DNA from: a virus
Strand: one strand, 5' to 3'
Virus record (IMG/VR): IMGVR_UViG_3300040959_000809
Length of the DNA: 64,000 nucleotides
Shown one piece after another: positions 12,057-32,730 of this stretch. Under the pieces are notes generated by a model. It searched no databases, was not told where the DNA came from, and was given only the letters and a program-made list of their open reading frames with translations. The position numbers and the translations under genes were made by a program. Every line of letters starts with the position of its first letter. The stretch's first letter is position 1.

Positions 12057-12260
12057 ATGAAATACGAAATAGCATTATCACGGACCGGGGTATACGGAAT
12101 TTTGGAGAACACATCTGGTACTTTTATAAATATGTCAAACACCAAAAAAAGTACCATAGAGTCAGTCTGTGATAATTTAAACTGGGGCACTGGGTTTCAA
12201 GGACATACCCCCAATTTTATTGCTAACTTTTCTCCTTTGGTAAGAACAAAAAGAGAATGA
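12057..12260 (+). CDS. hypothetical protein
   Basis: 67-aa ORF abutting gp41 stop; GTGFQGHTPNF. Confidence 0.6.
   Translation: MKYEIALSRTGVYGILENTSGTFINMSNTKKSTIESVCDNLNWGTGFQGHTPNFIANFSPLVRTKRE
12125..12132 (+). promoter_or_regulatory. T4-type late promoter
   Basis: Exact TATAAATA upstream of the 12265-16514 block. Confidence 0.6.
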
Positions 12261-12264
12261 AAAA

Positions 12265-13707
12265 ATGCCTCGTAATTTTAGAAACTATTTAAATGAAGCT
12301 TCTATATTAAAACCTGATTATGTAGAAGGGCATAAATTTGCCTGGAACGGTAAAGGTGTAAAGGAATTTGAAACCGCCGGTTATAAGCGCAATAATATAT
12401 TTACTGTAGTTACTGGTTCAGAAGGTGCTGTACTCATTGGAAGCCAAGATGCTGAGAATGAAAAATACCTACAAGGACCTGACGGAAAGGTATGGCACTT
12501 TAAAGGTGGTCTAAGTTTTAAGGCATCTTCTTTTACCCATGTTAAGGAATCTGGTGGGACACCCAGTGGCGCCGAATGGGAAAACCTTATTGTATTTGCC
12601 TATAATAATCTTAAAGGTACTGCTACAGATGAGGAAACAAAGGAAGTTGCTCTCAAATATTGGGAGCGTTATGGTAATATTTCGGATGAAATTGCTAAAA
12701 ACTTTGATACCAATCTTAAGGCAAAGCAGTTAGTACAAACAGGGCGTGGTTTGGGTAATGTCAAACTTGGAAAGTTTTGGAAAGCAGCTGGTGCGACAAA
12801 CAAGACACCAAAAACTGATATCGCATCATCTAATTTTGTGGAAAAGATTTCACTTAAAAAAGGTGGTGGATCTCAGCTCATTTCAGCAGAGAAAAAAGAA
12901 GCACTTGCAATCGTCAATGCTGCCCTATACGAAATGGGTGGTAACGCACCATTTGCCAAAAAGTTAACTAAGGCTATTGAAGATAAAATGACCAGACTTG
13001 TTACAACTGAGGCGGTCACAACCCTACAGAAACGCTCAATGATGGGTGATAAGGACGCTGGTGTGATTGATTATCAGAAAAAGGATAATGATCATAAGGA
13101 ATTGTCTGCAATGCTCAAGGAGGCCATTAGAGGGGCATCCGAAAGCAATAACTTATTCGCTCGACATATTGTACTAGAGGCAGCCACTGGTAATAATAAA
13201 TTTGGTGGTGCCAATTCAAAGGCAGCCGCAAATGTTTTAGGAAAATTTGATATTAGAACATTTGAGGTGGTTGTACAACCCATTTCATCTATTGATGATC
13301 CTATTATTATAGAGTATGCACAAAAGGTACGGCCATATGTTGCATTTAAAAAAGGTTCAGCGGGTTCTGCTGCTTATTCGGCAATGCGGATGGGTTTATC
13401 CGAAGGCTATACATTCCAAAAACTAGTCACCGAAGAACTTTCAAACATTCAAGGTTTCTATCTTACAGAGGATATTCTAAACGAAGGTCCTATGGGTATG
13501 CTTAGACGTGCTGGCACATTTGCCAAACGTGCAGGTGCCGCAGCTAAAAAAGCATTGGATGCAGCAGTTAAAAAGATCATTTTAAAATTAAAAAAGGTAT
13601 TTGCAGCCATTGCCAAAAAAGGTAAAAACATGATGGCAGCCCTTATGAAGTTCTTAGGGGTTGAGGTAAGTACTGCATCAGGAATTCCAGCAGAGGTAGG
13701 TCTATAA
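12265..13707 (+). CDS. putative capsid-packaged PD-(D/E)xK-fold nuclease-like protein
   Basis: Leader MPRNFRNYLNE; AEWE ... PKTD ... ISLKK restriction-fold-like triad. Confidence 0.6.
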   Translation: MPRNFRNYLNEASILKPDYVEGHKFAWNGKGVKEFETAGYKRNNIFTVVTGSEGAVLIGSQDAENEKYLQGPDGKVWHFKGGLSFKASSFTHVKESGGTPSGAEWENLIVFAYNNLKGTATDEETKEVALKYWERYGNISDEIAKNFDTNLKAKQLVQTGRGLGNVKLGKFWKAAGATNKTPKTDIASSNFVEKISLKKGGGSQLISAEKKEALAIVNAALYEMGGNAPFAKKLTKAIEDKMTRLVTTEAVTTLQKRSMMGDKDAGVIDYQKKDNDHKELSAMLKEAIRGASESNNLFARHIVLEAATGNNKFGGANSKAAANVLGKFDIRTFEVVVQPISSIDDPIIIEYAQKVRPYVAFKKGSAGSAAYSAMRMGLSEGYTFQKLVTEELSNIQGFYLTEDILNEGPMGMLRRAGTFAKRAGAAAKKALDAAVKKIILKLKKVFAAIAKKGKNMMAALMKFLGVEVSTASGIPAEVGL

Positions 13708-14960
13708 TGAAAAGATTTAAAAACTATATTGCAGAGGAGGTCCTTACAGAGGATAAGAATTTGCATATGACGCACCTTGAGGATGCGGTCCTTGATGGGG
13801 GTGTGGTTGGTACTCGGAATGTTATTAACTATCTTCGTGCATTGAGAGACATGTTAGGTGGCAACACCAAGGCACCAGTAAATGTCTCTGTAAAATGGGA
13901 TGGGGCACCGGCAATTTTTGCTGGGAAAGATCCATCCGATGGCAAATTCTTTATTGCCAAAAAAGGTGTTTTTAATAAGAATCCCAAAATATATAAAACA
14001 GAAGCTGAAATTGACAATGATATATCAGGTGACCTTGCGTCAAAGTTTAAGGTTGCTTTAAAAGAGTTTAGTAAGCTCGGCATTGAAGGAGTGGTACAGG
14101 GTGATTTCCTATATACGAATGATGATTTACAAACGACGGCTATTGATGGAGAATCGTATATTACTTTCCATCCTAATACGATTGTTTACGCGGTACCAAC
14201 AAAAAGCAAACTTGCAAAAACAATTTCAGGATCCTCGATCGGCGTGGTCTTCCATACAACATACCGAGGAGATTCATTTGAAACAATGTCAGCAAGTTTT
14301 GGAAAGGAGATTGTACCTTCTCTCAAAAAAGTCAAATCGGTCTGGGCGGTAGATGCAGTATTTGAAGATAAGTCGGGCAATGCCACATTTACAGCTGCAG
14401 AGACAAAAGCATTAAATTCTATTCTAACCAAGGTAGGCACACTGTTCAGAACAATTAAAAAGGAAACCCTAAACGGTCTTTCAAAGGCAAATAATGAGGA
14501 ACTTAATACACGCGTAAATGTATATGTAAATCAAAAGGTCCGAGCTGGAGAACGTATTGGAAACCCTAAACAGTTTGTGGCTGGTCTCACAAAATACATC
14601 AATGACTATTACGGCAAAGAGGCAGATAAAAAGAAAACCCAGCGCGGTAAAGACACACAGACCGCAAAGCGTGACTCGGCTCTAGCCTATTTTGCAAACA
14701 ATAATAAAAAAGAAATAGAACGCTTATTTGAAATGTATAACCTATTAGTTGATGCTAAACTTATGGTTATTTCAAAATTAAACCATGTCGATGGTCTACA
14801 AACATTTCTTAAAACCAATAAAGGTTTTGAGGTTACTGGACAGGAAGGCTTTGTCGCCATTGATCATATGGGTAAAAATTCACTTAAACTTGTAGATAGA
14901 CTACAATTTAGTAAGGCGAACTTTAGTACAGAATATATTAAAGGCTGGGAGAAAAAGTAA
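13707..14960 (+). CDS. putative capsid-packaged RNA-ligase-like nucleotidyltransferase
   Basis: Leader MKRFKNYIAE; KWDG (motif I), QGDFL (III), EGFV (IV), KLVD (V). Confidence 0.65.
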   Translation: MKRFKNYIAEEVLTEDKNLHMTHLEDAVLDGGVVGTRNVINYLRALRDMLGGNTKAPVNVSVKWDGAPAIFAGKDPSDGKFFIAKKGVFNKNPKIYKTEAEIDNDISGDLASKFKVALKEFSKLGIEGVVQGDFLYTNDDLQTTAIDGESYITFHPNTIVYAVPTKSKLAKTISGSSIGVVFHTTYRGDSFETMSASFGKEIVPSLKKVKSVWAVDAVFEDKSGNATFTAAETKALNSILTKVGTLFRTIKKETLNGLSKANNEELNTRVNVYVNQKVRAGERIGNPKQFVAGLTKYINDYYGKEADKKKTQRGKDTQTAKRDSALAYFANNNKKEIERLFEMYNLLVDAKLMVISKLNHVDGLQTFLKTNKGFEVTGQEGFVAIDHMGKNSLKLVDRLQFSKANFSTEYIKGWEKK

Positions 14961-15190
14961 TGGCTTGGGTAGCAGTACCAGGATCTAATGGAATTTGGGA
15001 ATATGATAATGCGGCCAGCACAGCTGATGCTGATACATATGATGATGCAAATGGTACTGTTACTGGAGGAATTAGATCATTTACACCTCCGGGCGGTTCT
15101 GCTCAATTCACCTATATCAAGACAAGAAAAGTAGGTGAGACAATCGTTCGCGGAGAACTCAATAAAAACTATTATGACGGCAAAATTTAA
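14960..15190 (+). CDS. hypothetical protein
   Basis: 76-aa coupled ORF. Confidence 0.6.
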   Translation: MAWVAVPGSNGIWEYDNAASTADADTYDDANGTVTGGIRSFTPPGGSAQFTYIKTRKVGETIVRGELNKNYYDGKI

Positions 15191-15206
15191 GAGATAGGTA
15201 AGAGCA

Positions 15207-16514
15207 ATGGCACAATTTAACAAAGATACAGGTGAATTTCTCAATAATAATAAAACACTATATGAAGTTGTTATGGTTGCTGGCCAAGCCGGGCCCTCAA
15301 CATATGTTAATACAGGCAATCTAAACACATCTTCTGATTCTTTTGGCAGAATGAGAGTCTCAGAACCACTTACTTTGTTTGATAGTAGTCATAGATACGC
15401 CGACAATGGACTTTTTTCAGAGAGCATAACAGGAACGGCATCATCAACATTTAACGGTGATGCAGGACTTATTGACTTAGATGTTGGTTCAAGTTCCGGT
15501 GATGAAATTCTCAGAGAAACCAATAAGACATTTGCATATCAGCCCGGCAAAAGTCTATTGATTCTTTCAAGTTTTATGCTTGCTGCAGCAAAAACTAATC
15601 TAAGACAGCGAGTTGGTTATTTTGGTTCTGAAAATGGTATCTTCTTAGAACAAGACGACAGTAATATATTAGTGGTATTGCGAAGTAAAGTAACTGGTAG
15701 TGTAGTTGACACAAAAATTGCAAAGGCAAACTGGAACGTTGACTCGTTAGATGGTACAGGCCCAAGTGGAGTGACTTTAGATTTGACTAAGGTTCAACTT
15801 ATGTGGTTGGACGTTGAGTGGCTTGGTGTTGGTAGTGTGCGTTTTGGTTTTGTGGTCAATGGACAGTTTATTCCATGTCATGTATTCCATCATGCAAATT
15901 TAATTGATTCCACATACATGACAACTGCATCTCTACCATTAAGACAAGAACTTACAAATACTGGTGCAACTTCTGGTGCAAGTCAGGCAAAACAAATTTG
16001 TAGCACTGTTATTAGTGAAGGTGGATATGAACTAAGAGGTAGACAACACGCCATTGGAACTCCAATTACCAGTGCATATCAATTGGCCGATGCCGGAACA
16101 TATTATCCTGTAGTTTCAATTAGACTGAAATCTGCAAGACAAGATGCAATTGTTATTTTGACTGCATTGTCTCTATTGGGGGTTGGTAATGGTGTAAACT
16201 TCTCATGGAAAATTGTTGCAGGCGGAACAGTGACAACAGCTTCTTGGACAAGTGCTGGTTCCGATTCTTCAGTCGAATACACCTTATCTGGAACTGCGCA
16301 TGATGGCGGTGGTAGAGTTCTTGCACAGGGGTATTTGAATTCCTCTAATCAAGGTTCGCCCACAATGGATATTCTAAAAGAGGCACTATTCAAGTTTCAG
16401 TTAGAGAGAAATTCATTTGCTGATGTTATGGAACCACTCTCGTTTTTGGTTGCTCCGGCAACTGATGATGAAGATATTTTTGCCTCGCTGGATTGGGAAG
16501 AGGTTACACGATAA
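15207..16514 (+). CDS. probable virion structural protein (beta-rich)
   Basis: 435 aa, Ser/Thr/Gly-rich; DSFGRMRVS, YQPGKS, WLGVGSVRFG; position in late block. Confidence 0.6.
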   Translation: MAQFNKDTGEFLNNNKTLYEVVMVAGQAGPSTYVNTGNLNTSSDSFGRMRVSEPLTLFDSSHRYADNGLFSESITGTASSTFNGDAGLIDLDVGSSSGDEILRETNKTFAYQPGKSLLILSSFMLAAAKTNLRQRVGYFGSENGIFLEQDDSNILVVLRSKVTGSVVDTKIAKANWNVDSLDGTGPSGVTLDLTKVQLMWLDVEWLGVGSVRFGFVVNGQFIPCHVFHHANLIDSTYMTTASLPLRQELTNTGATSGASQAKQICSTVISEGGYELRGRQHAIGTPITSAYQLADAGTYYPVVSIRLKSARQDAIVILTALSLLGVGNGVNFSWKIVAGGTVTTASWTSAGSDSSVEYTLSGTAHDGGGRVLAQGYLNSSNQGSPTMDILKEALFKFQLERNSFADVMEPLSFLVAPATDDEDIFASLDWEEVTR

Positions 16515-16532
16515 TTTATTATAGGTTATATT

Positions 16533-17246
16533 ATGAAAAATTTAATTTATCAGTATTACAGTAGTCCAGATAAAGATCGAGTGAAAAAAGATAGGCCCGG
16601 TGTATATATAAATGCCGGTAATTATCACGAGTACTCTAAACAATCCATATCAGCATATGCCAAAAAGCATGGTGTTTTATATAAATTTATGGACCACAAA
16701 TTACCTGACGACATCCCTTTATTCTATGGTATTTTTCTACCATTTCTAGAGGGCTGGTGTTGGGATTATGATAATATTTGTTTTATTGATAGTGATATTA
16801 TGGCTACCGTAAATAGTGGAAATGTATTCGACTATGCTGGCAAACAAGGTCTTACATTACATAAAATGGATGCTTCAAAACATCGATTTGATTCCAAGCG
16901 AGCATTTAAATTCTTTAATGAAATTAACGGCTTCTTTAATAGTGGTGTAGTGATCTTTCCAAGATCCGAATATGAAAATTTCATACATTTTGCATCCACA
17001 TTAAAACAAAGAGACTTAAACAGAACCTCTGTCGAGAATAGTCTTGGCGGTTTTGATCAAGGTTTATTAAATACCTGGATAGCAAATCATAAACGCTATA
17101 ACGAATTGCCAAAGCAATATAATTATCATATGGGTAGATATCAAAAGCCCGAAAGATGGTACGATGGCGTGAGCCTAATACACTACCATCGAGAGGACAA
17201 AGCATTAATGGAACCAGAGTTTCAGGATGAGAGAATACTTAAATGA
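16533..17246 (+). CDS. GT-A fold glycosyltransferase (GT8-like)
   Basis: FIDSD DxD motif, FNSGVV, DQGLLN, YNY...IHY. Confidence 0.8.
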   Translation: MKNLIYQYYSSPDKDRVKKDRPGVYINAGNYHEYSKQSISAYAKKHGVLYKFMDHKLPDDIPLFYGIFLPFLEGWCWDYDNICFIDSDIMATVNSGNVFDYAGKQGLTLHKMDASKHRFDSKRAFKFFNEINGFFNSGVVIFPRSEYENFIHFASTLKQRDLNRTSVENSLGGFDQGLLNTWIANHKRYNELPKQYNYHMGRYQKPERWYDGVSLIHYHREDKALMEPEFQDERILK

Positions 17247-17824
17247 TGGGTGATTTAAAATTTACAACTTGTGGGGATTTTATGCAAGAGCAAGATACTT
17301 ATATTGACCAGTATAAAGAATTTTACAATAACGGCGGTTACGAAAATAATGATCCCGTGATGAGAGCAAAAGATGACATTAAAAAGATGCTAAAAAAGTT
17401 CGACTGTAAATCATTATTAGATTATGGATGTGGACATGGACTACAATATTCTCAGCACAAATTAGATCAGTATTGGGATATTAAAAAACTTACGAAATAT
17501 GATCCAGGTGTACAAGAATTTGAAATAAAGCCTACTGGGACATTTGATGCAGTCATTAATACTGATGTTTTAGAGCATATTCCTGAGGATTATGTATATG
17601 ATGTGATTGCAGACATTTTTAGTTATGCTGGTAAGTTTGTATACTTTAGTATTGCCACAGATCTGGCAAAGGCAGTATTACCGAACGGGGAAAACGCTCA
17701 TTGCACATTAAAACCACATTCTGAATGGGTTACCATTATTGATGAAATGCGTGGGGATATTCCTACATTGGTAAAATGTACTGGCCGTAATCGCTCAAAG
17801 ATAGGGAGCACGTTACTGGAATGA
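17243..17824 (+). CDS. class I SAM-dependent methyltransferase
   Basis: LLDYGCGHG, YDP, DVLEHIP, NAH. Confidence 0.85.
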   Translation: MMGDLKFTTCGDFMQEQDTYIDQYKEFYNNGGYENNDPVMRAKDDIKKMLKKFDCKSLLDYGCGHGLQYSQHKLDQYWDIKKLTKYDPGVQEFEIKPTGTFDAVINTDVLEHIPEDYVYDVIADIFSYAGKFVYFSIATDLAKAVLPNGENAHCTLKPHSEWVTIIDEMRGDIPTLVKCTGRNRSKIGSTLLE

Positions 17825-18339
17825 TTAGAAAGGTTATACTCATTGGTAATGGTCCGTCAAGTAAATTTTATTCACAATTAAATCATTTAGATGGCGGAAT
17901 GACAGCTGGGTTTAACCTTACTGAACACAATGTAGATATTATTTTTGTAAGCGATAAAAAAGTTATTAATAAACTTGAAGGCAATCCAAAGGTACATGTA
18001 TTAAAAAAGCCTTTCATGACAAAAAAAGGTGGGCTTAATCTTGCATGGAATACAGGCCATAATGCATATAACTACCTAAGAAAAATGGGTTATACTCATT
18101 TTGAAATGTATGGTTTTGATTTGCTCTTTTCAGACAATTGGAGTTCGTCGACAGATCGAGTATTTAATAAGGATCTGTGGGTTCAACAGGCGATTGAGGT
18201 TGACATTAATAACGAATGGATTCAATACTGGAATGAGATAATTGACACACCTACAATCATTCATGCTCCTGTCGGGGCAAAACTTTATGTAAACTCTAAA
18301 CATGCACAAATAGAACACCATGAAAACTTTAATTATTAG
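17821..18339 (+). CDS. GNGPS-motif protein (sialyltransferase/Maf-like fold)
   Basis: VILIGNGPSS N-terminal motif, MYGFD. Confidence 0.45.
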   Translation: MIRKVILIGNGPSSKFYSQLNHLDGGMTAGFNLTEHNVDIIFVSDKKVINKLEGNPKVHVLKKPFMTKKGGLNLAWNTGHNAYNYLRKMGYTHFEMYGFDLLFSDNWSSSTDRVFNKDLWVQQAIEVDINNEWIQYWNEIIDTPTIIHAPVGAKLYVNSKHAQIEHHENFNY

Positions 18340-18868
18340 TATGCCTAAATCAGGCACATATCTATGTAGTAATTTACTTTTAGAGTTTGGAATCAGACAA
18401 ACCTTACTACATTTAAACACAGGTACCTACCAGCAATATACATCTGATATAAACGATACCAGAAAAAATCCCCAAAAATACACACACCAGTTGAACTTTG
18501 AAAAGTCAATAGAGTTATTTGGTGATAATGAGTTTGCGGTCACCCACGTACCATATAATAAGAAAAGAGCTCAATTGCTGAAGAACACAAAGAAAATACT
18601 TTTGGTGAGAGACGAAAAGGAAATTGTAGAATCATATCAAAGATGGAATGAAAAAACTGATAGACCTATGCCAGCGTTAAATTTAGGTGATATAAAGAGA
18701 TGGGAGCAAGAAACTAATATTTTTAAGCTTTCATTTAATGATATGATAAATAAAAATGTAGAACAGATTGATAGGTTACAGAACTATCTTTTTAATAGTA
18801 TAAAGTTTGATAGTCTGATGTGTATTAAGAATGCAATTGAATTGCCATCAATGACAAAAATGAGGTAA
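18320..18868 (+). CDS. sulfotransferase-like protein
   Basis: SMPKSGTYL PAPS-binding loop, LLVRD. Confidence 0.6.
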   Translation: MKTLIISMPKSGTYLCSNLLLEFGIRQTLLHLNTGTYQQYTSDINDTRKNPQKYTHQLNFEKSIELFGDNEFAVTHVPYNKKRAQLLKNTKKILLVRDEKEIVESYQRWNEKTDRPMPALNLGDIKRWEQETNIFKLSFNDMINKNVEQIDRLQNYLFNSIKFDSLMCIKNAIELPSMTKMR

Positions 18869-18872
18869 TATT

Positions 18873-19544
18873 ATGGTAATATGTGATAAACATAATTTTA
18901 TATTTCTGAGAATTCCGAAGAATGCAAGCTCTAGTCTTGCAGATTTTTTCGTGAGAAACTTTTGTGATCAGAATGATATATGGACAGAGGTAAACGATTG
19001 TGGTATTAGAGACAATAATGTAAGCCCAGAGTTGATTAGAAAATATAGACATCAGTACAGGTTTATCCACCTAATGCTTCAGGAACTAGTGGATAATAAT
19101 GTCGTGACCCCGACTACGTTGGCTGATAAGGAAATCATAAGTGTACTTAGAAACCCACATAGGCGCCAATTATCACTTTATTTCTTTTTAAAGCGAGGAC
19201 AAAGAAAATCGCCTGAGGAATTTAGACATATTTTTAGAGATGGTTATCATGAAACGGATACTTCAAATAGGATTCTCCAAACAGATTATCCTAAATTAAA
19301 AGGTGTTGACAAAGGGACATGGTGGATATATAATAGACTTAATGAACACTTGCAAGAGTTTTGCTCCTCCAAGGGCATGACAGGAAAGTTAGAATTAAAA
19401 CAATATAAAAACGGATATACACCGAAACAACAAGAAATCTTTGAACAGTATTATGACCAAAAAACACTTGATGCTGTTAAAAAATATTATGAAAAGGATT
19501 TTGACAAACTTATGGAATTAGGAACGGGATTGGAACTAGCATGA
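18873..19544 (+). CDS. sulfotransferase family 2 protein
   Basis: FIFLRIPKNASSS, LRNPHRRQLSLY, YYEKDF. Confidence 0.75.
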   Translation: MVICDKHNFIFLRIPKNASSSLADFFVRNFCDQNDIWTEVNDCGIRDNNVSPELIRKYRHQYRFIHLMLQELVDNNVVTPTTLADKEIISVLRNPHRRQLSLYFFLKRGQRKSPEEFRHIFRDGYHETDTSNRILQTDYPKLKGVDKGTWWIYNRLNEHLQEFCSSKGMTGKLELKQYKNGYTPKQQEIFEQYYDQKTLDAVKKYYEKDFDKLMELGTGLELA

Positions 19545-20221
19545 ACGAAATACAAAAAGCTTATATTTTAAGAATTGACACCGATCTATCACGAGAGTAT
19601 GCTCAAATTACCGCTGATTCTTGTGATACAATAGGACTACCTTACGAATATCACGAGGGCTTCTATAACATGGATCCAAATGACGCCTGGAATACCATAG
19701 GCTTGAGTAGACATATCAAGCGTAATAACTGGGTTCCAGCTGCACAACTTTGTACGGCTGGTCATGCAGCTATTTGGAAAAAGATTGCAGACAATAATGA
19801 AACTGCAATTATTCTTGAGCATGATGCTGTAATGCTACACGATCCTCGGAATGTTAAAATTGGTGATAATAGAATTGTATGTCTAGGATACAAGTTAAAG
19901 GATCCAACTAGATATGACCATGAAGCCGCAGGTGGTCCTAGAGGACTTAGACAAATATCTGGCCACGAAGGTGCTCATGCTTATGCCATCTCGGCGGCTA
20001 CCGCTAGGTCGATGCTCAAGGAAATTGAGGAAAATGGTGTAAGGTCAGCGGTTGACAATCTATACTTTCTCATCCAACGTGCAAATTATACAAAGATTCC
20101 TTTGGCTATTATGGACCCAACAGCTGCAATTGGTTGGCTGCGAGACTCTACAATTTGGGAGGAACCAGCAGAAAATAATTATGCCTTTGTAGCATCATTT
20201 GAAAGAAATCTGGTAAATTAA
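19541..20221 (+). CDS. glycosyltransferase family 25-like
   Basis: CTAGHAAIW, ILEHDA, AHAYAIS.. A. Confidence 0.75.
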   Translation: MNEIQKAYILRIDTDLSREYAQITADSCDTIGLPYEYHEGFYNMDPNDAWNTIGLSRHIKRNNWVPAAQLCTAGHAAIWKKIADNNETAIILEHDAVMLHDPRNVKIGDNRIVCLGYKLKDPTRYDHEAAGGPRGLRQISGHEGAHAYAISAATARSMLKEIEENGVRSAVDNLYFLIQRANYTKIPLAIMDPTAAIGWLRDSTIWEEPAENNYAFVASFERNLVN

Positions 20222-20224
20222 ACC

Positions 20225-20884
20225 ATGTCGTTTCTGTTAAAGAATGATGTTATATCATTACACGTACCAAAGACGGGTGGTAAGGCATTTGAGCAGTGGA
20301 TTACATATGGTGCCAGGGTGGTTAAGGAACGAATTGTCAATCAACATTATTCATATTCTGAACTAATAAATGTTCACCCTGAGTATACTGATAACGACTA
20401 TATTATGATTATCAGAAATCCATATGCAAGAATTGTAAGTTGGTACCACCACAGTAGAGATGTGTATACATATAGTATTAATAGACCAGCACAAAAGGAC
20501 AAGAACCATCCACCAGAATCACCTAGGTTTAGCCCATCATTTGAAGATTGGGTACGAAAGGAGGACCTAAGAGATTTTCCAGCATTTACAAAAAACAGAA
20601 CGGCTGGATCTTTTGGAACAATGAAATCATATTTACACCCATCTGGTAGGATGCCAACATATCTATTACACCAGGAAACATTAGCAGATGATCTAAAACC
20701 ATTGAGAGAACTATGGGAAACAGACGCACCATTAACAACTGAAAATAAATCGTCTGTTTCCTTTTCAGGTAATAATAATTGGAAAAATGAGTTTAAATCG
20801 GATTATACAAAGGACTTTATATACGAATACTTCAAGGAAGACTTTGAAACCTTTGGATATGATAGAAAGTTCCCCACCGATTAA
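20225..20884 (+). CDS. sulfotransferase family 2 protein
   Basis: LHVPKTGG, IRNPYARIVSWY, FKEDFETFGY. Confidence 0.8.
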   Translation: MSFLLKNDVISLHVPKTGGKAFEQWITYGARVVKERIVNQHYSYSELINVHPEYTDNDYIMIIRNPYARIVSWYHHSRDVYTYSINRPAQKDKNHPPESPRFSPSFEDWVRKEDLRDFPAFTKNRTAGSFGTMKSYLHPSGRMPTYLLHQETLADDLKPLRELWETDAPLTTENKSSVSFSGNNNWKNEFKSDYTKDFIYEYFKEDFETFGYDRKFPTD

Positions 20885-20890
20885 GTAAGT

Positions 20891-20898
20891 TATAAATA
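20891..20898 (+). promoter_or_regulatory. T4-type late promoter
   Basis: Exact TATAAATA 35 nt before the 20933 start. Confidence 0.8.
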
Positions 20899-20932
20899 TA
20901 TCTATAAAGTAGCATAGGAATCGAGACATATA

Positions 20933-23242
20933 ATGGCCGATAAAAAGAAGAAAAAGCCCCCAGTCAAAAACTTTAAAGAATTTGACCCGGCCCAATTCAT
21001 TGAAACTGAACCAAAATTAACAGAAGCCGTTAAAAAAGACACGGTCGTTATTAGTTTCGGCAGAATGAATCCTATTACAGTAGGACATGAAAAGCTTGTT
21101 GGTAAGGTTTTAAATGTTGCTCAAAGCCAAAAGGCGGATCCTGCTATTTTTCTTTCTCACACAACTGATCCTAAAAAGAACCCTTTAACATATGAGGAAA
21201 AACTATTTTTTGCTCAAAAGGCCTTTGGCAAAGTAATTAAGAAATCACCTGCAAGGACAATTATTGAGGTGGCAAAACAACTACAGAATATGTATAAGAA
21301 TATGACTGTGGTAGTTGGTTCTGACAGAGTAAAGGAATTTGAAACCTTATTAAATAAATACAATGGAAAAGATTATAAATTTAATACTATTAATGTAGTT
21401 TCAGCTGGTGAAAGAGACCCAGACTCGGAAGGTGTTTCCGGCATGAGTGCATCCAAGATGAGATCGGCTGCTGCCGATGATGACTTTAAAAGTTTTAAAC
21501 AAGGTCTTCCTAAAAAATTACAATCAACCGCAAAAAAGATTTTTGATACAACGAGGCAAGGTATGGCATTAGATGAAGAAACTTTAGAAGAAGCAGTTCT
21601 ATCGAGAGCCGCACGACGGAAAAGAGCTCGACTCCTTAGAAGATATAAAGGTAAAATTGCTCTTGCACGCAAAAAGGCAATGCGTAGACGTGCCACATTA
21701 GACACTCTAAAGAAAAGAGCTCGGAAAACTGCACGTACTATGATCAAGGATAAATTGGCAAAGTCCAAAAGATTTGCTGATCTTGATCCTACTGCAAAAA
21801 TTGCTATTGAAAAGAGACTTGAGAAAATGCCATCGGCGCGTCTTGAAAGATTGGCTCGACGGATTCTCCCTTCAATTAAACGTAAGGAAACGGACCGTAT
21901 GCAACAAAGAAAAAAGAATGAGTCCTTAAATATTGATGAACAATTTGAAATGTTTATGGAAGAAAGAACACCGTCAGGTCGTTTTGGAAAGAATACCCAT
22001 GATATCAAGGTAAAGGTACCAGGTAGAATTAATAAAGCTATTAAAAAGGGAAGCCCGGTTTGGGACCAACGTGAGAACAAACCTCACCAGGAAACCAAGA
22101 AACACCTTTCCGATATAATGAAAAAGCATGGTGTAAAACCATCTAAGGCAAAACATTATCATAATGACATGACAGGTCATTATATGATGGCACATCCAAG
22201 TAATGATCCAGCAAAAGTTCATGCCGCGGCAACTGAATTTGAAAAAACAGTAGGTAAGGCGGTTCGTACAGAAGCCAAAGATGGTGATGGTGTCAATATC
22301 GTAAGGGACCGTGAATTTAAGGGTAAACCTATGAAGAAAGAGCCTGGTACAATAGGCATTAAATTCTCTGATATGAGAAAGTCTAAGTGGGCCAAGGACT
22401 CTGATACCAATCCAAAAAGATCCAAAGCTATGGGTGAAGCCACAGATCTTGAGGAAAAGCTAAAAGCCTCCGATGATATGGGCACTTGGATTAAGGATTT
22501 CCAGGATTCTGATGCACCACAGTTTAAAGACAAATCAAAAGAAAAGCGTAGACAAATGGCTATTGCTGCTAAATTGGATGCCGAGGATGATGTTAAAAAG
22601 GAATCGGTTCAAAAGGGAACTCATATTTCAGACGATCCAAAGGCTATGGCTAGAATAGAAAAATTCTTCAAAGGTTTGAAGCATCAGCCCAAAGGCAAAG
22701 ATATGAAAGATATGTTCGGGTTCATGATGAAACAAATGGGCTATAACCCTAAAACCGGCCTTAAAGAATATAATGAAGATGTAGATCTTGATGAAGCAGC
22801 TCATGATCCTAAACATGTAAAAATGGCTATAGGCATTGCATCTGATAAAAGATATAAAGGTGGTGACATGACTGGTGCAGTCAAGTCCATCGAAAAGATC
22901 AAAAAGGGACTATCTGATCATCCACAAGTTTCTGCTGTACTAAGAAGACAGAACGAAGAAACCAAAACGGAATCGTTGGACGAAATGTGGGGAACATATG
23001 TTTCAAAACGACCTCACATGCTATTGGATAAGAACAATAAGGTTAAATTTGACAAGCGCTTTAAAATGTTTAAAAAGCAAAATGAACTTGAAGAAGAATT
23101 TACACTTAATGAAGAAATGGATTTGGTAAATGATCTTGAGAATTCAGTAAATGAGTTTGTAGAATCTAATGAATTCAAGGAAGCAACTGAACCAAAACTT
23201 TCGTTTAAGGATATCCAAAAAAGAATGGGAAAGGCAAAGTAA
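20933..23242 (+). CDS. putative polyprotein: HxGH nucleotidyltransferase (cytidylyltransferase/NadD-like) plus about 7 small basic modules
   Basis: FGRMNPITVGH and MSASKMR motifs; acidic linkers LDEETLEE, NIDE..FMEE, DLEE, DVDLDE, SLDE. Confidence 0.75.
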   Translation: MADKKKKKPPVKNFKEFDPAQFIETEPKLTEAVKKDTVVISFGRMNPITVGHEKLVGKVLNVAQSQKADPAIFLSHTTDPKKNPLTYEEKLFFAQKAFGKVIKKSPARTIIEVAKQLQNMYKNMTVVVGSDRVKEFETLLNKYNGKDYKFNTINVVSAGERDPDSEGVSGMSASKMRSAAADDDFKSFKQGLPKKLQSTAKKIFDTTRQGMALDEETLEEAVLSRAARRKRARLLRRYKGKIALARKKAMRRRATLDTLKKRARKTARTMIKDKLAKSKRFADLDPTAKIAIEKRLEKMPSARLERLARRILPSIKRKETDRMQQRKKNESLNIDEQFEMFMEERTPSGRFGKNTHDIKVKVPGRINKAIKKGSPVWDQRENKPHQETKKHLSDIMKKHGVKPSKAKHYHNDMTGHYMMAHPSNDPAKVHAAATEFEKTVGKAVRTEAKDGDGVNIVRDREFKGKPMKKEPGTIGIKFSDMRKSKWAKDSDTNPKRSKAMGEATDLEEKLKASDDMGTWIKDFQDSDAPQFKDKSKEKRRQMAIAAKLDAEDDVKKESVQKGTHISDDPKAMARIEKFFKGLKHQPKGKDMKDMFGFMMKQMGYNPKTGLKEYNEDVDLDEAAHDPKHVKMAIGIASDKRYKGGDMTGAVKSIEKIKKGLSDHPQVSAVLRRQNEETKTESLDEMWGTYVSKRPHMLLDKNNKVKFDKRFKMFKKQNELEEEFTLNEEMDLVNDLENSVNEFVESNEFKEATEPKLSFKDIQKRMGKAK

Positions 23243-23736
23243 TGAATAGCTTTAAAGATCATCTTGCAGAAAAGAAAAATGCAGAAGATCCGGATATCGG
23301 AGACCGAAAAGGATCACAACCTTCCGAATATCATAAAGGAATTAAGTCTGTTTCCACCAAGGTCGCTCGTGATCAACACTTTAAAAAGTATGCCAAAAAA
23401 GGTGAAGATGGCGAGGCGGACAGTCAAGCAAATTATAAACCTGCACCAGGTGACGCCACTGCTACAACAAAACCTTCAAAGCACACAAAACGCTATAAGG
23501 CTATGTTTGGAGAAGATGCAACAGAAGGCTTAAAGAAAAAGGCCGAGAAAAGCGGTATGCCTCTTGGAGTACTTAGGCAGGTTTACAACCGTGGTGTTGC
23601 TGCATGGAAATCTGGTCATCGCCCTGGCACTACTCCTCAGCAATGGGGCTTTGCAAGAGTTAATAGCTTTGTGACCAAATCAAAAGGGACTTGGGGCAAG
23701 GCAGATAAGGATTTAGCAGCCAAGGTGGGGGGCTAA
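23242..23736 (+). CDS. CTS-leader protein with HRPG..PQQW..ARVNSF domain (DUF5824-like)
   Basis: Leader MNSFKDHLAE; C-terminal VYNRGVAAWKSGHRPGTTPQQWGFARVNSF. Confidence 0.65.
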   Translation: MNSFKDHLAEKKNAEDPDIGDRKGSQPSEYHKGIKSVSTKVARDQHFKKYAKKGEDGEADSQANYKPAPGDATATTKPSKHTKRYKAMFGEDATEGLKKKAEKSGMPLGVLRQVYNRGVAAWKSGHRPGTTPQQWGFARVNSFVTKSKGTWGKADKDLAAKVGG

Positions 23737-23738
23737 AA

Positions 23739-24371
23739 ATGCAAAACTTTAAATCGTTTATTTCTGAAGCCGGTGGTGCTGGTGAGTGGGGAGCAAAGAA
23801 ACTCACAAAGAAATATAAAAAAGACACCCCAGGCGAATCCTCTGATTTAAATGAAAGCGCATTAAAAGCACTTAGGGTTGCGACCAAAGCTCATGCAGGA
23901 CAAACACGTAAAAGTGGTGGCAAGTATATTGAGCACCCAAAAGAGGTTGCTCGATTTGTAAAGCAATTTAAAAAGTCAAATAATCTTTCGGCGTTAGTAC
24001 AGGCAGCCTATCTACACGATACTATTGAAGATACTGATACAACATATGATGATTTGGTTAAACAGTTTGGTGCTCTTGTAGCTGATATGGTTCAGGAATT
24101 AACAACTGATAAAGCTGCCTCTGATGCTATTGGTAAAGGTGAATACATCGCTGGTAAGATGGCTAAAATGTCAAGTTGGTCATTAGTTATTAAACTTGCG
24201 GATAGATTAGCAAATGTACAAGACATTGATACTCGGCCTGCAGATTTCCAAAAGAAATATGCTGCACAGACTGCACTTGCCATTAAACGTCTCCGTAGTG
24301 ATAGGTTCTTGAGCAAAACACATAATAAAATCATCTCGGCAATTGAGAAAAAGATTAAAGAGTATGTTTAA
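23739..24371 (+). CDS. CTS-leader HD hydrolase, SpoT/Mesh1 type
   Basis: Leader MQNFKSFISE; AHAGQTRKSG..YIEHP, AAYLHDTIEDT, V.ELT.DK, IKLADRLAN. Confidence 0.88.
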   Translation: MQNFKSFISEAGGAGEWGAKKLTKKYKKDTPGESSDLNESALKALRVATKAHAGQTRKSGGKYIEHPKEVARFVKQFKKSNNLSALVQAAYLHDTIEDTDTTYDDLVKQFGALVADMVQELTTDKAASDAIGKGEYIAGKMAKMSSWSLVIKLADRLANVQDIDTRPADFQKKYAAQTALAIKRLRSDRFLSKTHNKIISAIEKKIKEYV

Positions 24372-24747
24372 GTTTAAAAAATATGTATCTGAAGGCCTCA
24401 AGCTTAAACTCATTAGAGGTAAAGGCGAAGACGTCTTAAAAATAAAAGATAGTAAAGAGAAGTCTTGGGTTGAAGTGCGTGGAAAACCTAACTTCGAAAC
24501 TAAGTTTGATCCAAAAGATCCTCTACATAAAGCAATTGCAGCTTTAAGAAAATCTGTTAATGTGTCTGAGCTTGTGAATGGAGAGCCTGTAGGCATTAAT
24601 CCAAACCATCCTGACGGTAAAAAAGCTCTGGCAGCAATAAAGAAGTTGATGAATGAAACTAACGGCTTTCAACCAGCAATGATGTTACATGAGCCAACCA
24701 AAAAGAAAATATTGTCTAAACAAAAAAAGAATAGAGAAGAAAAATGA
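24364..24747 (+). CDS. CTS-leader hypothetical protein
   Basis: Start moved to MFKFKKYVSE at 24364, overlapping the previous stop. Confidence 0.7.
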   Translation: MFKFKKYVSEGLKLKLIRGKGEDVLKIKDSKEKSWVEVRGKPNFETKFDPKDPLHKAIAALRKSVNVSELVNGEPVGINPNHPDGKKALAAIKKLMNETNGFQPAMMLHEPTKKKILSKQKKNREEK

Positions 24748-25439
24748 AAAGATTTAAGCATTATATTTCAGAAGGTAATGCTAAAGGTGGTTACCATTAT
24801 GAAGATCAGGTTAATAGTAATCTGAAAAAGCATGGAATGCAGAAAAAGGACCAAAAGAGTGCTGGAGCATCAAAGGATGCACCTGATGGAACAATTCGGT
24901 CCAAGGATGGTAAACATCACAATCTTGAAATTAAACAGAATAAAAATGCTATGTATGGACAAATTGGTATGCACCACGATGGCAAAACATGGAAGGTAAA
25001 GGATAAATCCAAAAAGGATTATCCTGAAACTGCAAAACATATTGAAAAACATGTAGTACCTCATATGAATAAACATATGGGAAAGCCATCCGGTGATTAT
25101 CACAAGGATAAAGAAGTACACGGTAACCATTATATCCCACATAAGGGCACTCAGCCCATCCGTGATCATTATGCAAAAGATAGAAACACACATTATATTC
25201 AGATTGGCAAATCCGGTCTCCACCATATGTCAAAGGATCATGGTAAACTTGGTACTCATGAATTAAACGGAGATACTCGTTTCCGTGTACGTGTTAAATA
25301 CCATGGAACAAATAAAAAGACCAACAAGGTAAGTTATAGCCATACTGTTACGATGGAATTAAAGAACCATAAAGCATCACATATAGATCTGGACCATCAT
25401 TCAGAACATTTAGGTAAAATACACGGCAAACATGAATAG
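24744..25439 (+). CDS. CTS-leader PD-(D/E)xK nuclease-like protein, His/Lys-rich
   Basis: Leader MKRFKHYISE; YE ... APDG ... LEIK triad. Confidence 0.65.
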   Translation: MKRFKHYISEGNAKGGYHYEDQVNSNLKKHGMQKKDQKSAGASKDAPDGTIRSKDGKHHNLEIKQNKNAMYGQIGMHHDGKTWKVKDKSKKDYPETAKHIEKHVVPHMNKHMGKPSGDYHKDKEVHGNHYIPHKGTQPIRDHYAKDRNTHYIQIGKSGLHHMSKDHGKLGTHELNGDTRFRVRVKYHGTNKKTNKVSYSHTVTMELKNHKASHIDLDHHSEHLGKIHGKHE

Positions 25440-25716
25440 TTTTAAAACATATATTCTTGAAGCAAAGACACCCAAATGGAAAAAGGCAGGGCCGGATGGT
25501 GAGCAGGAAATTACCTTTCCTACAGGTAGAAGGTTTAAAATAGAAAAACAACTTGATCAAAATGAGCGACATCAACGTGGCGAATATAAGGTCATGGAAT
25601 GGGATTCCAAAACTCGGGATTGGGAATGGCATGAAACATATAGTCCAAAATGGTATGCTAAAGAGAAGGTAATGGAACTAGGCAAGTATGACCAAAAGGG
25701 AAAAAAGGTAGGATGA
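25432..25716 (+). CDS. CTS-leader hypothetical protein
   Basis: Leader MNSFKTYILE. Confidence 0.7.
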   Translation: MNSFKTYILEAKTPKWKKAGPDGEQEITFPTGRRFKIEKQLDQNERHQRGEYKVMEWDSKTRDWEWHETYSPKWYAKEKVMELGKYDQKGKKVG

Positions 25717-26087
25717 AAAAGTTTAAACAACATTTACATGAATCTAACTTTGGTCTATATGAAGGAACCACAGTACCACTTGATCAGCCGATGATTGAAA
25801 TTGATGAGGAACAGGAACCAGAACTTAATTCACCAAAACGTGGCGGCAAGAAAAAGTACATTGTATATGTCCGGGATCCTAATACAAAGAATATAAAAAA
25901 GATCCAATTCGGAGACGACACGGGATTGTCTGCAAAGATTAATGACCCAGGTGCTCGGAAGAATTTTGCAGCCAGACATAATTGTGCTGATAAAACAGAT
26001 AAAACCAAGGCTGGCTATTGGGCATGTAGATTACCAAAATATGCCAAACAATTAGGTCTTAAAGGCGGAGGTGATTTCTTTTGGTAG
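25713..26087 (+). CDS. CTS-leader basic protein
   Basis: Leader MKKFKQHLHE; KNFAARHNC...KAGYWAC domain. Confidence 0.7.
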   Translation: MKKFKQHLHESNFGLYEGTTVPLDQPMIEIDEEQEPELNSPKRGGKKKYIVYVRDPNTKNIKKIQFGDDTGLSAKINDPGARKNFAARHNCADKTDKTKAGYWACRLPKYAKQLGLKGGGDFFW

Positions 26088-26341
26088 TCCCGTATAACGA
26101 CACCAACATGGGGCTCAGAATATTTGACGTACTAGCCGAGAGCTCAGAGTACGTATGGCACCGTGATAAGGAAAGTAGAGAAATAGAAGTTATTTCTGGT
26201 GAGGGTTGGCAGTTTCAAGTTGAGGATTGCTTACCTTGGTTATTAACTAAAGGGATGAAGTTTACAATAGAGTCAGGTGTTTACCATAGGCTTTTAAAGG
26301 GTGTAGATAATCTTGAAATAAGAATAAAAGAAATAACTTAG
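26081..26341 (+). CDS. small cupin-like protein
   Basis: VWHRD, WQFQ, YHRLLKG; TTG start. Confidence 0.6.
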   Translation: MVVPYNDTNMGLRIFDVLAESSEYVWHRDKESREIEVISGEGWQFQVEDCLPWLLTKGMKFTIESGVYHRLLKGVDNLEIRIKEIT

Positions 26342-26344
26342 CAA

Positions 26345-26352
26345 TATAAATA
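26345..26352 (+). promoter_or_regulatory. T4-type late promoter
   Basis: Exact TATAAATA 40 nt before the 26392 start. Confidence 0.8.
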
Positions 26353-26391
26353 TCAAAAATAACCACATTAAATTTTTAAGGATCTAATAAA

Positions 26392-28170
26392 ATGGCTTTT
26401 ACAGACAGAATTAAACAGTTAATGTCGTCTCATCTCGAGGCGGAACTAATGGAAGGTCTGAAACACGACCGTTATATGCGTGCTCACGGTAAAAAAGCTA
26501 AAGGCACCGCAACATGGATGTTTACCACCAAAAAAGATGGTGAAGTAAACTACGATAACGATAAGGAAGTTTTCCAATCCGGTCCATCTATGAAACTTGC
26601 AGATGCTGCCAAAAAAGCAATGGATGCTCTTAAATCAAAAACAATTTATGTAATGGAAGCTAAATTAGATCCAGTTGGCAAAGAAGATGATGATGTGGAC
26701 AATGACGGTGATGTAGATAAATCCGATAAGTATCTTAAAAAGCGCCGGGCCGCAATCAAAAAGGCTATTAATACAAAACCAGCAATGAAAGAGGCAGCTA
26801 AAAAGCAAAAAGCAAAACTACTGCCCGTCAAAGGTTCTGTAGATGATGCAAATGATGTGGCACAAAAGGCAACTGGCGAATCTGTTAATGAAGCGGCAAC
26901 ACCTCAAATGATGAAAGCCGCAAAAGAACTTGAAATGTACGCAAAGAAACACGGTGGGATTGATAAAACAGACTTTATGAAAGCCTCAAAGATGTTGGCA
27001 TCCGGTAAAGCCGGAACAAACCTTGTTAAATTTGTAGACGGACTTGACACAGATCCTCGTGAAAAGGTTATTACAGTTATGGGAACCCACATGGGTAATA
27101 AAACTGTTGGAAAAATGTTTGGTGTTAACATCCGTGAAGAAGTAGAATTAGACGAAGATCGTAGAACGGAACTTAGTCATCAATCAATGATGTTTACTCA
27201 TGCAATGAAACAAGCTGAATTTAAAAAGAAAGATCCGAGACTCGCAAAACAGCATGATATGGCTGGCAAGTTGCATGCTAAAGCGGCAGATATGCACGCT
27301 GATAACCATCCAGATGCAAAAAAGCATTCAGATAAAGCAAATAAAGCATCAAAGCTATTAGGCGAAGAAGTAGAACTTGATGAAACTTTATCACCATCTG
27401 AAAAGAAACTTGTCAATCAAATGTATGATAAGAAAGGTAACCTGACACCACTTGGTAAAAAGGTTATGAACCACGGTAAAAAGCCTGGTGATAACATCCG
27501 TGAGGAAACTGAACAGCTTGATGAATCAACTCAAATGATGGAAAATCTAGCTGATGCGATTGATAATACAGATTTGGCTAAACTCACAGTAGAAGAGTTA
27601 TCTGAAATCGAAGAAGGTATTATTAAGGCGCTAGGTGTTGCCGCCAAAAAGACTGTAGGTGGTGTCGCTAAGGGTGTAGGTGCTGTCGCTAAGGGTGTTG
27701 GTAAGGCAGCTAAATCCGCAGTCATTAATAAACAAGGTAATATCCGTGGTACACAAGCGGCTAAAACTGACGCACAGACTAACAAGGCTAATAAAATTGC
27801 TGATAAATTGCAACGAAATAAAGATGCGGCCGATAGATTAAAAGCGGCTCAGGACAGAATTAAATCTCTTTCCTCTAAGCCTAAGAAACCATTAGCGGCA
27901 AGTTATAATGAGGACCTAAACGAAATCGGAAGTAACTTTGAAACAAAACCGAATGAAAAGAAACTTGCTGACCTAGGCCGTAAAATGATGGATATGGGTC
28001 AAAAGGAAAAGAATGATACTCTTTCAAATGCATATGCCAGACTTGGTGACGCGTTGACAAGATATGGTACCACATTTGGTGCCAGAAATATAAAAGATTT
28101 GGAAAAGAAAACTGGCATGAAACAAGCCATTATTATGGATCTTATGAAAAGAGCTGCGAAGCATAAGTAA
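26392..28170 (+). CDS. putative polyprotein of about 9 modules separated by prohead-protease-type linkers
   Basis: Linkers ELME, YVME, SVNE, NIREEVELDE, GEEVELDE, NIREETEQLDE, EIEE, DLNE. Confidence 0.75.
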   Translation: MAFTDRIKQLMSSHLEAELMEGLKHDRYMRAHGKKAKGTATWMFTTKKDGEVNYDNDKEVFQSGPSMKLADAAKKAMDALKSKTIYVMEAKLDPVGKEDDDVDNDGDVDKSDKYLKKRRAAIKKAINTKPAMKEAAKKQKAKLLPVKGSVDDANDVAQKATGESVNEAATPQMMKAAKELEMYAKKHGGIDKTDFMKASKMLASGKAGTNLVKFVDGLDTDPREKVITVMGTHMGNKTVGKMFGVNIREEVELDEDRRTELSHQSMMFTHAMKQAEFKKKDPRLAKQHDMAGKLHAKAADMHADNHPDAKKHSDKANKASKLLGEEVELDETLSPSEKKLVNQMYDKKGNLTPLGKKVMNHGKKPGDNIREETEQLDESTQMMENLADAIDNTDLAKLTVEELSEIEEGIIKALGVAAKKTVGGVAKGVGAVAKGVGKAAKSAVINKQGNIRGTQAAKTDAQTNKANKIADKLQRNKDAADRLKAAQDRIKSLSSKPKKPLAASYNEDLNEIGSNFETKPNEKKLADLGRKMMDMGQKEKNDTLSNAYARLGDALTRYGTTFGARNIKDLEKKTGMKQAIIMDLMKRAAKHK

Positions 28171-31209: not shown

Positions 31210-31379
31210 TGAAAAAGATTAAAGTAGAAGAACCAGTAAATAATGTAGGCGGTGGAAATATTGCTGGTCTCGGTGTGGGTCCTCAAGGTGAACCTGGGGT
31301 AACACCAAAGCAACAGAAAAAATATAAAAAGAAAAATATTTTAAAATTTAAAGATTATTTGGAAGGAGATAAACCATGA
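31209..31379 (+). CDS. small protein (56 aa, below track cutoff)
   Basis: Own translation MKKIKVEEPVNNVGGGNIAGLGVGPQGEPGV...LKFKDYLEGDKP; coupled at both ends. Confidence 0.6.
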   Translation: MKKIKVEEPVNNVGGGNIAGLGVGPQGEPGVTPKQQKKYKKKNILKFKDYLEGDKP

Positions 31380-32233: not shown

Positions 32234-32241
32234 TATAAATA
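32234..32241 (+). promoter_or_regulatory. T4-type late promoter
   Basis: Exact TATAAATA 28 nt before 32269. Confidence 0.75.
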
Positions 32242-32268
32242 GTTTTGATAAAAAAATAGGAGACATCG

Positions 32269-32718
32269 ATGTCGGTTGAAAAAATTATTAGATCCGCAAT
32301 AGAGGAAAAACCATTAGAGATGAAGGAAGCACTTGATTTAGAAATGAATCAACGTGTACATCTTGCTCTCGAGGGTTATAAAAAGAAAAAAATGGCCGAA
32401 AACGATGATGAGGCTGAAGGTGACAATGATACATGTGATCATTGTAACGGAACTGGCTATCATGAGAATGATGGTGAAAAGGTTAAATGCAAACCCTGTA
32501 AAGGGACCGGCAAAGTTTCAGATGACGACGATGATGACGATGATGACGATGATGATGAGCAAGATGTACAGGAATCAGACGAGTATGAAGCTGATAAAGT
32601 ACATATGTCCAGAGAATTGGCTAAAAGAGCTCGTGAACGTGGTGACTATAAAGTCGCACAAAAACATGACCGTGAACAGGAAAAGCATGCTATCCGCCAA
32701 CACGGCATACAAAAATAA
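32269..32718 (+). CDS. prohead-core-like (gp67-like) protein with DnaJ-type Zn finger and poly-Asp tract
   Basis: N-terminus similar to ORF 32731; CDHCNGTG...CKPCKGTG; run of Asp codons at about 32520-32556. Confidence 0.55.
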   Translation: MSVEKIIRSAIEEKPLEMKEALDLEMNQRVHLALEGYKKKKMAENDDEAEGDNDTCDHCNGTGYHENDGEKVKCKPCKGTGKVSDDDDDDDDDDDDEQDVQESDEYEADKVHMSRELAKRARERGDYKVAQKHDREQEKHAIRQHGIQK

Positions 32719-32730
32719 AAGGAAAATATT

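Follow-up and report, generated by a model that had tools for sequence, protein, structure and literature searches.

A portable N-terminal leader in a marine T4-like phage resembles the capsid targeting sequence of T4

The 64,000-nucleotide stretch of DNA from IMG/VR virus record IMGVR_UViG_3300040959_000809, hereafter the window, belongs to a T4-like marine myovirus, kin of the phages C48C1, Melnitz, DLP_6 and HTVC008M and of the cyanomyoviruses. At positions 12265-28170 it holds a cluster of genes, several of which begin with the same kind of ten-residue leader peptide. Our analysis supports the view that this leader is a sorting signal at the level of the protein, transferable between cargos and of one class with the capsid targeting sequence of T4, because its key positions match, a matrix built from marine leaders finds the T4 internal proteins ipI-III, and the leader is joined to unrelated cargo. 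The proteins that carry it are therefore probably packed in the virus particle. A preliminary description of the window had called the cluster a regulon, which is a misnomer, since the shared feature is a sorting signal.

The consensus M-x-x-F-K-x-[YHF]-[ILV]-x-E stands at the ATG starts of seven open reading frames (ORFs): 13707 (MKRFKNYIAE), 23242 (MNSFKDHLAE), 23739 (MQNFKSFISE), 24364 (MFKFKKYVSE), 24744 (MKRFKHYISE), 25432 (MNSFKTYILE) and 25713 (MKKFKQHLHE). These are the seven leaders listed in the preliminary description. A six-frame regular-expression scan of the whole window retrieved the motif at these seven starts and at one internal, non-start site (34821) only. A position matrix trained solely on the leaders of DUF6267 homologues from other phages (n = 75 distinct leaders) was then applied to 105 window ORFs, of which the seven N-termini scored 9.8-21.7 bits and the next best -2.2. 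Internal ten-residue stretches of at least 8 bits are rare (3 of 18,556), and one of them is the leader of 12265, offset by one residue. All seven leaders have F at position 4, Y, H or F at position 7, I, L or V at position 8 and E at position 10, the latter being invariant across the 75 training leaders. On the approximately 95 other window ORFs, including gp59, gp32, UvsX, gp41, gp61 and the nucleotide-metabolism genes, the leader does not occur. An equal frequency among early and replication proteins had been named beforehand as an argument against a packaging role; the motif is absent from these genes of the window.

Three further genes had been assigned related or divergent leaders. At 12265 the motif is indeed present, displaced by one residue (MPRNFRNYLNE). 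The assignment holds in part for 20933, an ORF that starts with ATG and reads MADKKKKKPP-VKNFKEFDPAQFIE; the leader-like KNFKEFDPAQFIE begins ten residues inside the protein, and its 'V' is encoded by GTC (20963), a codon that does not serve as a start. No leader can be recognised in the ORF at 26392. The start at 24364 is an internal ATG within a longer ORF that opens with TTG, and the orthologues in two related loci (L046, L063) begin at the leader. Altogether, the window contains eight to nine leader genes.

The comparison with T4, which the preliminary description had already drawn, is borne out position by position. In T4, ipII and ipIII start with MKTYQEFIAE and ipI starts with MKTFKEFTSTTTPVSTITE. 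The first ten residues of T4 IPIII are enough for packaging, residues 4 and 7 being the main determinants of targeting and residues 8 and 10 those of processing (PMC9026906). It is at the same four positions, 4, 7, 8 and 10, that the leaders of the window lineage are conserved. When the marine-leader matrix was run on T4 (409 first-Met ORFs), gp61.1 ranked first, ipIII second, ipII third and ipI fifth, rank four being a spurious frame over transfer RNA genes. The displaced leader of 20933 (KNFKEFDPAQFIE) resembles the long, two-part propeptide of T4 IPI (MKTFKEF...ITE) in its build of FKEF, spacer and I-x-E. The top-ranking T4 protein, gp61.1 (NC_000866, 18966-19130, - strand; locus L131), is a hypothetical protein of 54 residues that starts MKTFKEFIKE and adjoins primase gene 61. 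Lying in the T4 41-61 interval, it is the positional counterpart of the window leader cluster, which is located between gp41 and gp61. On the strength of its N-terminus, gp61.1 may be an overlooked capsid-targeted protein.

To gauge portability, we searched 80 related IMG/VR loci (57-97% DUF6267 identity) together with the window for a relaxed form of the leader. These 81 loci contain 146 leader ORFs on the gene strand versus 2 on the opposite strand. With the leader removed, the ORFs fall into 27 cargo clusters that are unrelated by BLAST, and three window cargos have distinct folds (ligase-like, HD and restriction-endonuclease-like). In complete relatives the number of leader genes is about 5-7 (C48C1, 156 kilobases (kb); an IMG/VR genome, 195 kb), and the window is at the high end of this range, not exceptional. 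Compared with the three internal proteins plus gp61.1 of T4, the earlier statement that the system is much larger than that of T4 was overstated.

Among DUF6267 homologues (120 close and 150 distant), the leader has F or Y at position 4, Y, F or H at position 7, I, L, V or M at position 8 and Glu at position 10, while the remaining positions drift; the same pattern is seen among the homologues of 24744 (n = 16). The nucleotides upstream of the window leader genes show no conservation. Since the substitutions at the key positions are conservative and the upstream nucleotides differ, selection appears to act on the peptide and not on the DNA. That the leader is a separate extension is seen from the DUF6267 orthologues of cyanophages (P-HM2, S-SM1), which begin with a KN-H-x-H-x-ED block and have everything but the leader. 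The leader boundary also recurs inside a longer protein. Stand-alone genes of two loci (L020, L043) read MKSFKQYLEE/KLKVSD..., the slash marking the end of the leader, and in an alignment their mature part begins at residue 506 of the 769-residue protein encoded at 20933, where the junction reads ...TDLEE/KLKASD... The leader-bearing protein of L043 continues into a module that corresponds to residues 325-477 of the 26392 protein. What is an internal L-x-E junction in one phage is thus the leader boundary in another, as a protease-cut polyprotein would predict.

Relatives provide evidence for both the protease and the packaging. A gene for Peptidase_S77 (gp21) is present in seven of seven relatives searched, namely C48C1, DLP_6 and five large leader-carrying contigs. 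For the cyanophage S-SM1, purified virions have been analysed by mass spectrometry (Table S8 in Sullivan et al. 2010, PMC3037559). Peptide counts were 25 for the T4-GC190 'cytidyltransferase', 12 for GC1453, 10 for GC1454, 7 for GC1455 and 8 for gp21 (PMC3037559). GC190 and GC1453-GC1455 are the products of the contiguous S-SM1 genes SSM1_188 and SSM1_190-192, which are homologous to and syntenic with window genes. SSM1_190 (GC190) has the N-terminus MKKFSAFLNE, and its transferase domain shares 43% identity with that of the 20933 protein; a DPVG-EDDDVDNDGD block is common to SSM1_191 and the 26392 protein. As these are homologues in a distant relative, their detection in virions bears on the window phage indirectly. 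The leaderless DUF6267 orthologue of S-SM1, GC71 (SSM1_189), is absent from the proteomic listing, and no leader or processing has been described for the S-SM1 cluster (PMC3037559).

We consider it likely that the leader does in this lineage what the capsid targeting sequence does in T4. According to this proposal, the leader genes would be transcribed late, and the aromatic residues 4 and 7 would attach each protein to the core scaffold as the prohead assembles. A gp21-type prohead protease would then cut after Glu10 and probably also at [ILV]-x-E junctions within the two long modular proteins, and the basic mature proteins would remain in the head together with the DNA. Docking, cleavage and retention in the window phage are steps that we infer by analogy with T4 and the relatives. 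The candidate proteins are uniformly basic: ten of ten have isoelectric points (pI) of 9.4-10.0, versus a median of 5.6 for the other 95 window ORFs, only 15% of which exceed a pI of 9.

The tag system of the window is a variant of the known T4 system. In common with IPI, IPII and IPIII of T4 (Mullaney and Black 1996, via PMC9026906), it has a ten-residue leader that is aromatic at positions 4 and 7, aliphatic at position 8 and closed by Glu10, the leader sits on unrelated, basic, late (in the window, predicted late) proteins, and a gp21-family protease occurs in the lineage. On the other hand, the window lineage is a marine T4-like one, in or near the Kyanoviridae, it has eight to nine leader genes instead of three, and position 5 is Lys where T4 has Gln. 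Much of the window cargo is predicted to be enzymes, whereas that of T4 is small proteins that bind DNA or act as inhibitors, and in the two long modular proteins the cleavage site seems to serve a second time, as a linker within the chain. An enzyme cargo is also a feature of T4 Alt, an ADP-ribosyltransferase that is loaded into the head, trimmed by gp21 and injected to act before phage gene expression; unlike the window proteins, it has its own propeptides at both ends and no ten-residue leader (PMC9026906), and the window enzymes belong to other classes. For the ejection and inner-body proteins of giant phages (SPN3US, phiKZ-like) and the Dar proteins of P1, prohead-protease cuts after Glu or N-terminal loading signals are likewise reported, and some of them are reported to protect against restriction. 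These phages belong to unrelated families with different signals and proteases, and their cargo was established by proteomics.

Several observations weigh against the proposed targeting role. gp21, gp22 and gp23 were not seen in the window, and a fragmentary assembly with sequences of the same phage (G001) has no match to Peptidase_S77 or Gp23. Packaging is dispensable for the function of DUF6267, which does without a leader in cyanophages. Among the cluster proteins that were detected in S-SM1 virions, SSM1_188 and SSM1_191 have no canonical leader, and the leader is therefore not the sole route into the S-SM1 particle. Within the window, 26392 is leaderless and the leader of 20933 is displaced. 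Finally, reading the octamer TATAAATA upstream of leader genes as a late promoter is an assumption taken over from T4-like phages, and the motif also precedes ordinary genes such as that for heme oxygenase.

The leader could also direct proteins to the assembling particle where they serve as transient assembly material, or lie elsewhere in the virion, rather than forming an injected kit. Precedents are the T4 core proteins gp22, gp67 and gp68, which are cut by gp21 and for the most part exit the head (PMC9026906), and leader-like starts are found beside gp21 in relatives, e.g. MKTLRQIISE (L096) and MKSFKDIYED (L094). However, the cargo proteins are uniformly basic, as are the T4 internal proteins, and they include folded enzymes with intact catalytic motifs. 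In addition, the virions in which the S-SM1 homologues were detected were mature and purified, with 25 peptide counts for GC190. We regard transient assembly material, or a place elsewhere in the virion, as unlikely.

A feature of the messenger RNA or of translation common to late genes, such as an AAA/TTT-rich 5' coding region that helps initiation or translational coupling, might produce a shared start without any sorting. It would fit with the A/T-rich leader codons (ATG AAA xxx TTT AAA) and with the many genes that overlap the preceding stop codon (ATGA or TAATG), an arrangement suggestive of coupled translation. Yet homologues differ by conservative amino-acid exchanges with E10 invariant, upstream nucleotides are not conserved, other late or virion genes such as 15207 and 28210 have no leader, and the peptide pattern picks out the proven targeting sequences of T4. 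This explanation is very improbable. To about the same slight degree one may credit a relic of common descent, or a mobile 5' cassette spread by recombination, with no current sorting role. The genes are clustered and modules shuffle among them, and mobile regulatory cassettes are reported for T4-type genomes. Against a relic or cassette stand the different folds of the cargo domains (ligase-like, HD, restriction-endonuclease-like) and the retention of the leader in homologues that are only 40-50% identical while its non-key positions vary; since the key positions are conserved, the leader itself appears to be under selection. That the leader directs proteins to the membrane, the periplasm or another phage compartment, or marks them for regulated proteolysis, has the least to commend it, as the peptide is too little hydrophobic for a secretion signal, is predicted to be a short floppy helix, matches the T4 signal position by position, and no such system is known in T4-like phages.

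Late expression would be expected of proteins with a T4-type capsid targeting sequence, and it is plausible for the cluster. The preliminary description had placed all of them behind late promoters. The T4-type late-promoter-like motif TATAAATA is present on the + strand at each of the three sites named (12125..12132, 20891..20898 and 26345..26352). The first copy, 132 nucleotides (nt) upstream of 12265, lies within a doubtful ORF of 67 codons, and the genes between 14960 and 20884 are leaderless. The second is intergenic, 34 nt upstream of the ATG at 20933, and heads an operon (20933-26087) that is tightly coupled through overlapping stop and start codons. The third, also intergenic, is found 39 nt upstream of the ATG at 26392. 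In total, the window has 10 + strand copies of the motif, six of them in intergenic DNA, which makes up 7.4% of the window (p about 3e-5).

All likely genes of the window are on the + strand, and the cargo proteins are described here in gene order. The first gene of the cluster (12265..13707) encodes a basic protein of 480 residues (pI 9.5) with a PKTDI...SLK motif and the leader shifted by one. Its Melnitz orthologue, gene 15, has the start MQGFKTFLSE. The ESM Atlas offers weak restriction-enzyme leads only (0.79-0.82), and a nuclease reading of this protein is tentative at most.

The DUF6267 protein (13707..14960, leader MKRFKNYIAE) has, according to an AlphaFold model with a predicted local distance difference test (pLDDT) score of 92.8, a ligase-type nucleotidyltransferase fold; residues 1-14, which include the leader, are outside the fold (pLDDT <50). 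K63, D65 and G66 (KxDG) as well as E380, G381 and K394 are invariant in 92 homologues. In an exhaustive structure search (VIA) the best 17 matches were all RNA or DNA ligases, with a top Z of only 8.1 (5cot, root-mean-square deviation (rmsd) 3.9 A, 189 residues). Foldseek searches against the PDB gave no significant match for this model (best E 0.04) or for that of 24744, Pfam files the protein under DUF6267 and not under a ligase family, and a PDB sequence search yielded no match for the DUF6267 protein or the 769-residue protein. The model supports the assignment of 13707 as a ligase-like protein. Fusions occur in other phages: DUF6267 is found downstream of a cytidylyltransferase domain (P0190, P0225, P0264), with the leader MRLNKYLTE in P0264, and behind a P-loop kinase in P0124. 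These fusions suggest that the ligase-like protein works with cytidylyltransferase or kinase partners.

The 769-residue basic modular protein (20933..23242) carries the displaced leader, followed by a cytidylyltransferase-like domain and Lys/Arg-rich modules. Its residues 33-215 match Pfam CTP_transf_like with 18.7 bits, which is below the cut-off of 21, and contain a TVGH motif; the match to the 'cytidyltransferase' family phrog_3041 has an E value of 3.8e-70. Sequence comparison thereby supports an N-terminal domain of cytidylyltransferase-like type. The next protein (23242..23736, 164 residues, leader MNSFKDHLAE) is a DUF5824 protein, a module that in other phages forms the C-terminal end of the same family phrog_3041 (positions 605-676).

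The gene at 23739..24371 (leader MQNFKSFISE) encodes a 210-residue HD_4 hydrolase of the RelA/SpoT/Mesh1 type. It scores 60 bits against Pfam HD_4 (cut-off 27.2), its solved relatives are Mesh1/HDDC3 (E 1.6e-16), Rel hydrolase domains and small alarmone hydrolases, and TIGR00691 is matched in part. Apart from this protein, an NCBIfam search of the cluster proteins found nothing. These similarities support the prediction of a Mesh1/SpoT-type alarmone hydrolase.

The His-rich protein of 231 residues (24744..25439, leader MKRFKHYISE) was modelled with a pLDDT of 87.7, residues 1-15 being outside the folded domain (pLDDT below 50). The best VIA match is HhaI (6uke_X, Z 11.5, 182 residues, rmsd 4.3 A), followed by MspI with 5.1, and P47, D48, E62 and K64 (PD...ExK) are invariant or nearly so in 16 homologues. 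Pfam and NCBIfam searches gave no sequence-family match, and the ESM Atlas a weak restriction-enzyme lead (0.89). The model supports a PD-(D/E)xK restriction-endonuclease fold of the HhaI/HinP1I/MspI group, and we predict a nuclease. Like the ligase-like protein, the alarmone hydrolase and the cytidylyltransferase-like domain, it is one of the enzyme types listed in the preliminary description for which sequence or fold speaks. GCGC avoidance, which would mirror an HhaI-like enzyme, was ruled out for the window (observed/expected 0.99). In relatives, this type of HhaI-fold protein is the second commonest tagged cargo adjoining DUF6267 (20 loci). In Melnitz-3 (locus L007, 1-938) an HhaI-type modification methylase is annotated a few genes upstream of the HhaI-fold gene.

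The remaining genes of the operon encode small basic proteins: 24364..24747 (127 residues, no family, leader MFKFKKYVSE), 25432..25716 (94 residues, no family, leader MNSFKTYILE) and 25713..26087 (124 residues, phrog_7595, leader MKKFKQHLHE). Orthologues of the latter with a leader are found in L018, L069, L076 and L090. The cluster ends with the basic modular protein of 592 residues (26392..28170), which has no canonical leader.

Beyond packaging, we infer that the proteins are ejected into the host, where the ligase-like, alarmone hydrolase, cytidylyltransferase-like and HhaI-fold proteins would act early in infection. More tentatively, a clade of abundant marine T4-like phages with SAR11-type, OM43-type and other heterotroph hosts might use a conserved tag of the T4 type to fill its capsid with a fast-changing kit of injected enzymes that disarms host defences before any phage gene is expressed. 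Such a kit could comprise the alarmone hydrolase, nucleases of the HhaI fold and the ligase-like protein together with the cytidylyltransferase as its partner, delivered partly as protease-cut polyproteins, and its targets might be alarmone-based abortive infection, RNA-cutting toxins and competing DNA. We put forward this enzyme-kit reading as a whole as a possibility that is rather doubtful at present.

The wider gene content of the window is that of a T4-type phage, with replication genes on the + strand for gp59 (7520), gp32 (8180), UvsX (9455), the DnaB-like gp41 helicase (10617) and the gp61 primase (34323). By its DUF6267 protein, the nearest named phage is C48C1 (Kyanoviridae, 52% identity), followed by Stenotrophomonas phage DLP_6 (49%), the Methylophilales Melnitz phages (47%), Pelagibacter phage HTVC008M (39%) and several hundred cyanomyoviruses (36-39%). 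A megablast of the region against 50,697 phage records, a set from which close records may be missing, gave no match, and the exact DUF6267 protein was matched in short metagenome contigs only. Fragments 99% identical to the window phage, including the DUF6267 gene, are contained in the 5.1-Mb bacterial assembly G001 (contig C88, locus L001), which is 98% complete and consists of 160 contigs; it may be a host culture or a contaminated bin.

At 14960-20884 (+ strand) the genes are leaderless; besides a virion structural protein they encode sulfotransferases, a glycosyltransferase and a methyltransferase. Seven of them (16533-20884) lie between the virion structural protein (15207, phrog_1645) and the leader operon, their products being three sulfotransferases, a family-25 glycosyltransferase, a methyltransferase and two proteins without a confident family match. 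They may modify a glycan on the virion or host surface. In the early region, a UDP-glucose/GDP-mannose dehydrogenase-like gene (2412-3224) and the DNA-modification cluster reported at 1-1620 in the preliminary description hint at sugar chemistry. An intergenic TATAAATA at 5885 precedes two genes of a pigment pathway, one for heme oxygenase (5956-6573) and one for a ferredoxin-dependent bilin reductase (6577-7254). Such genes are typical of cyanophages, yet the nearest kin of the window phage infect heterotrophs. Another intergenic copy of the motif, at 32234, follows directly on the endolysin gene (31376-32233) and precedes a pair of small paralogous genes that start with MSVEKIIRSAIEE... and MSVENMIKSAIDS... 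(32234-32955). CATG is the most under-represented 4-base palindrome, with observed/expected ratios of 0.64 in the window and 0.62 in C48C1 (L108-L115).

The T4 literature anticipates a tag that lets T4-like phages load varied proteins (PMC9026906). Our literature search, which had most subscription journals outside its reach, found no description of a targeting leader in cyanophage-related, pelagiphage or methylophage genomes, or of the leader beyond the T-even group. Should the proteins be packaged, the loading tag of T4 would be far older and more widespread than the T-even coliphages, and could be used as a sequence-only marker of injected proteins in uncultured marine phages. The predicted cargo, with its alarmone hydrolase, ligase-like enzyme and restriction-endonuclease fold, points to activities in early infection, and the cultured relatives Melnitz, C48C1 and DLP_6, which carry the same tag, are open to virion proteomics.

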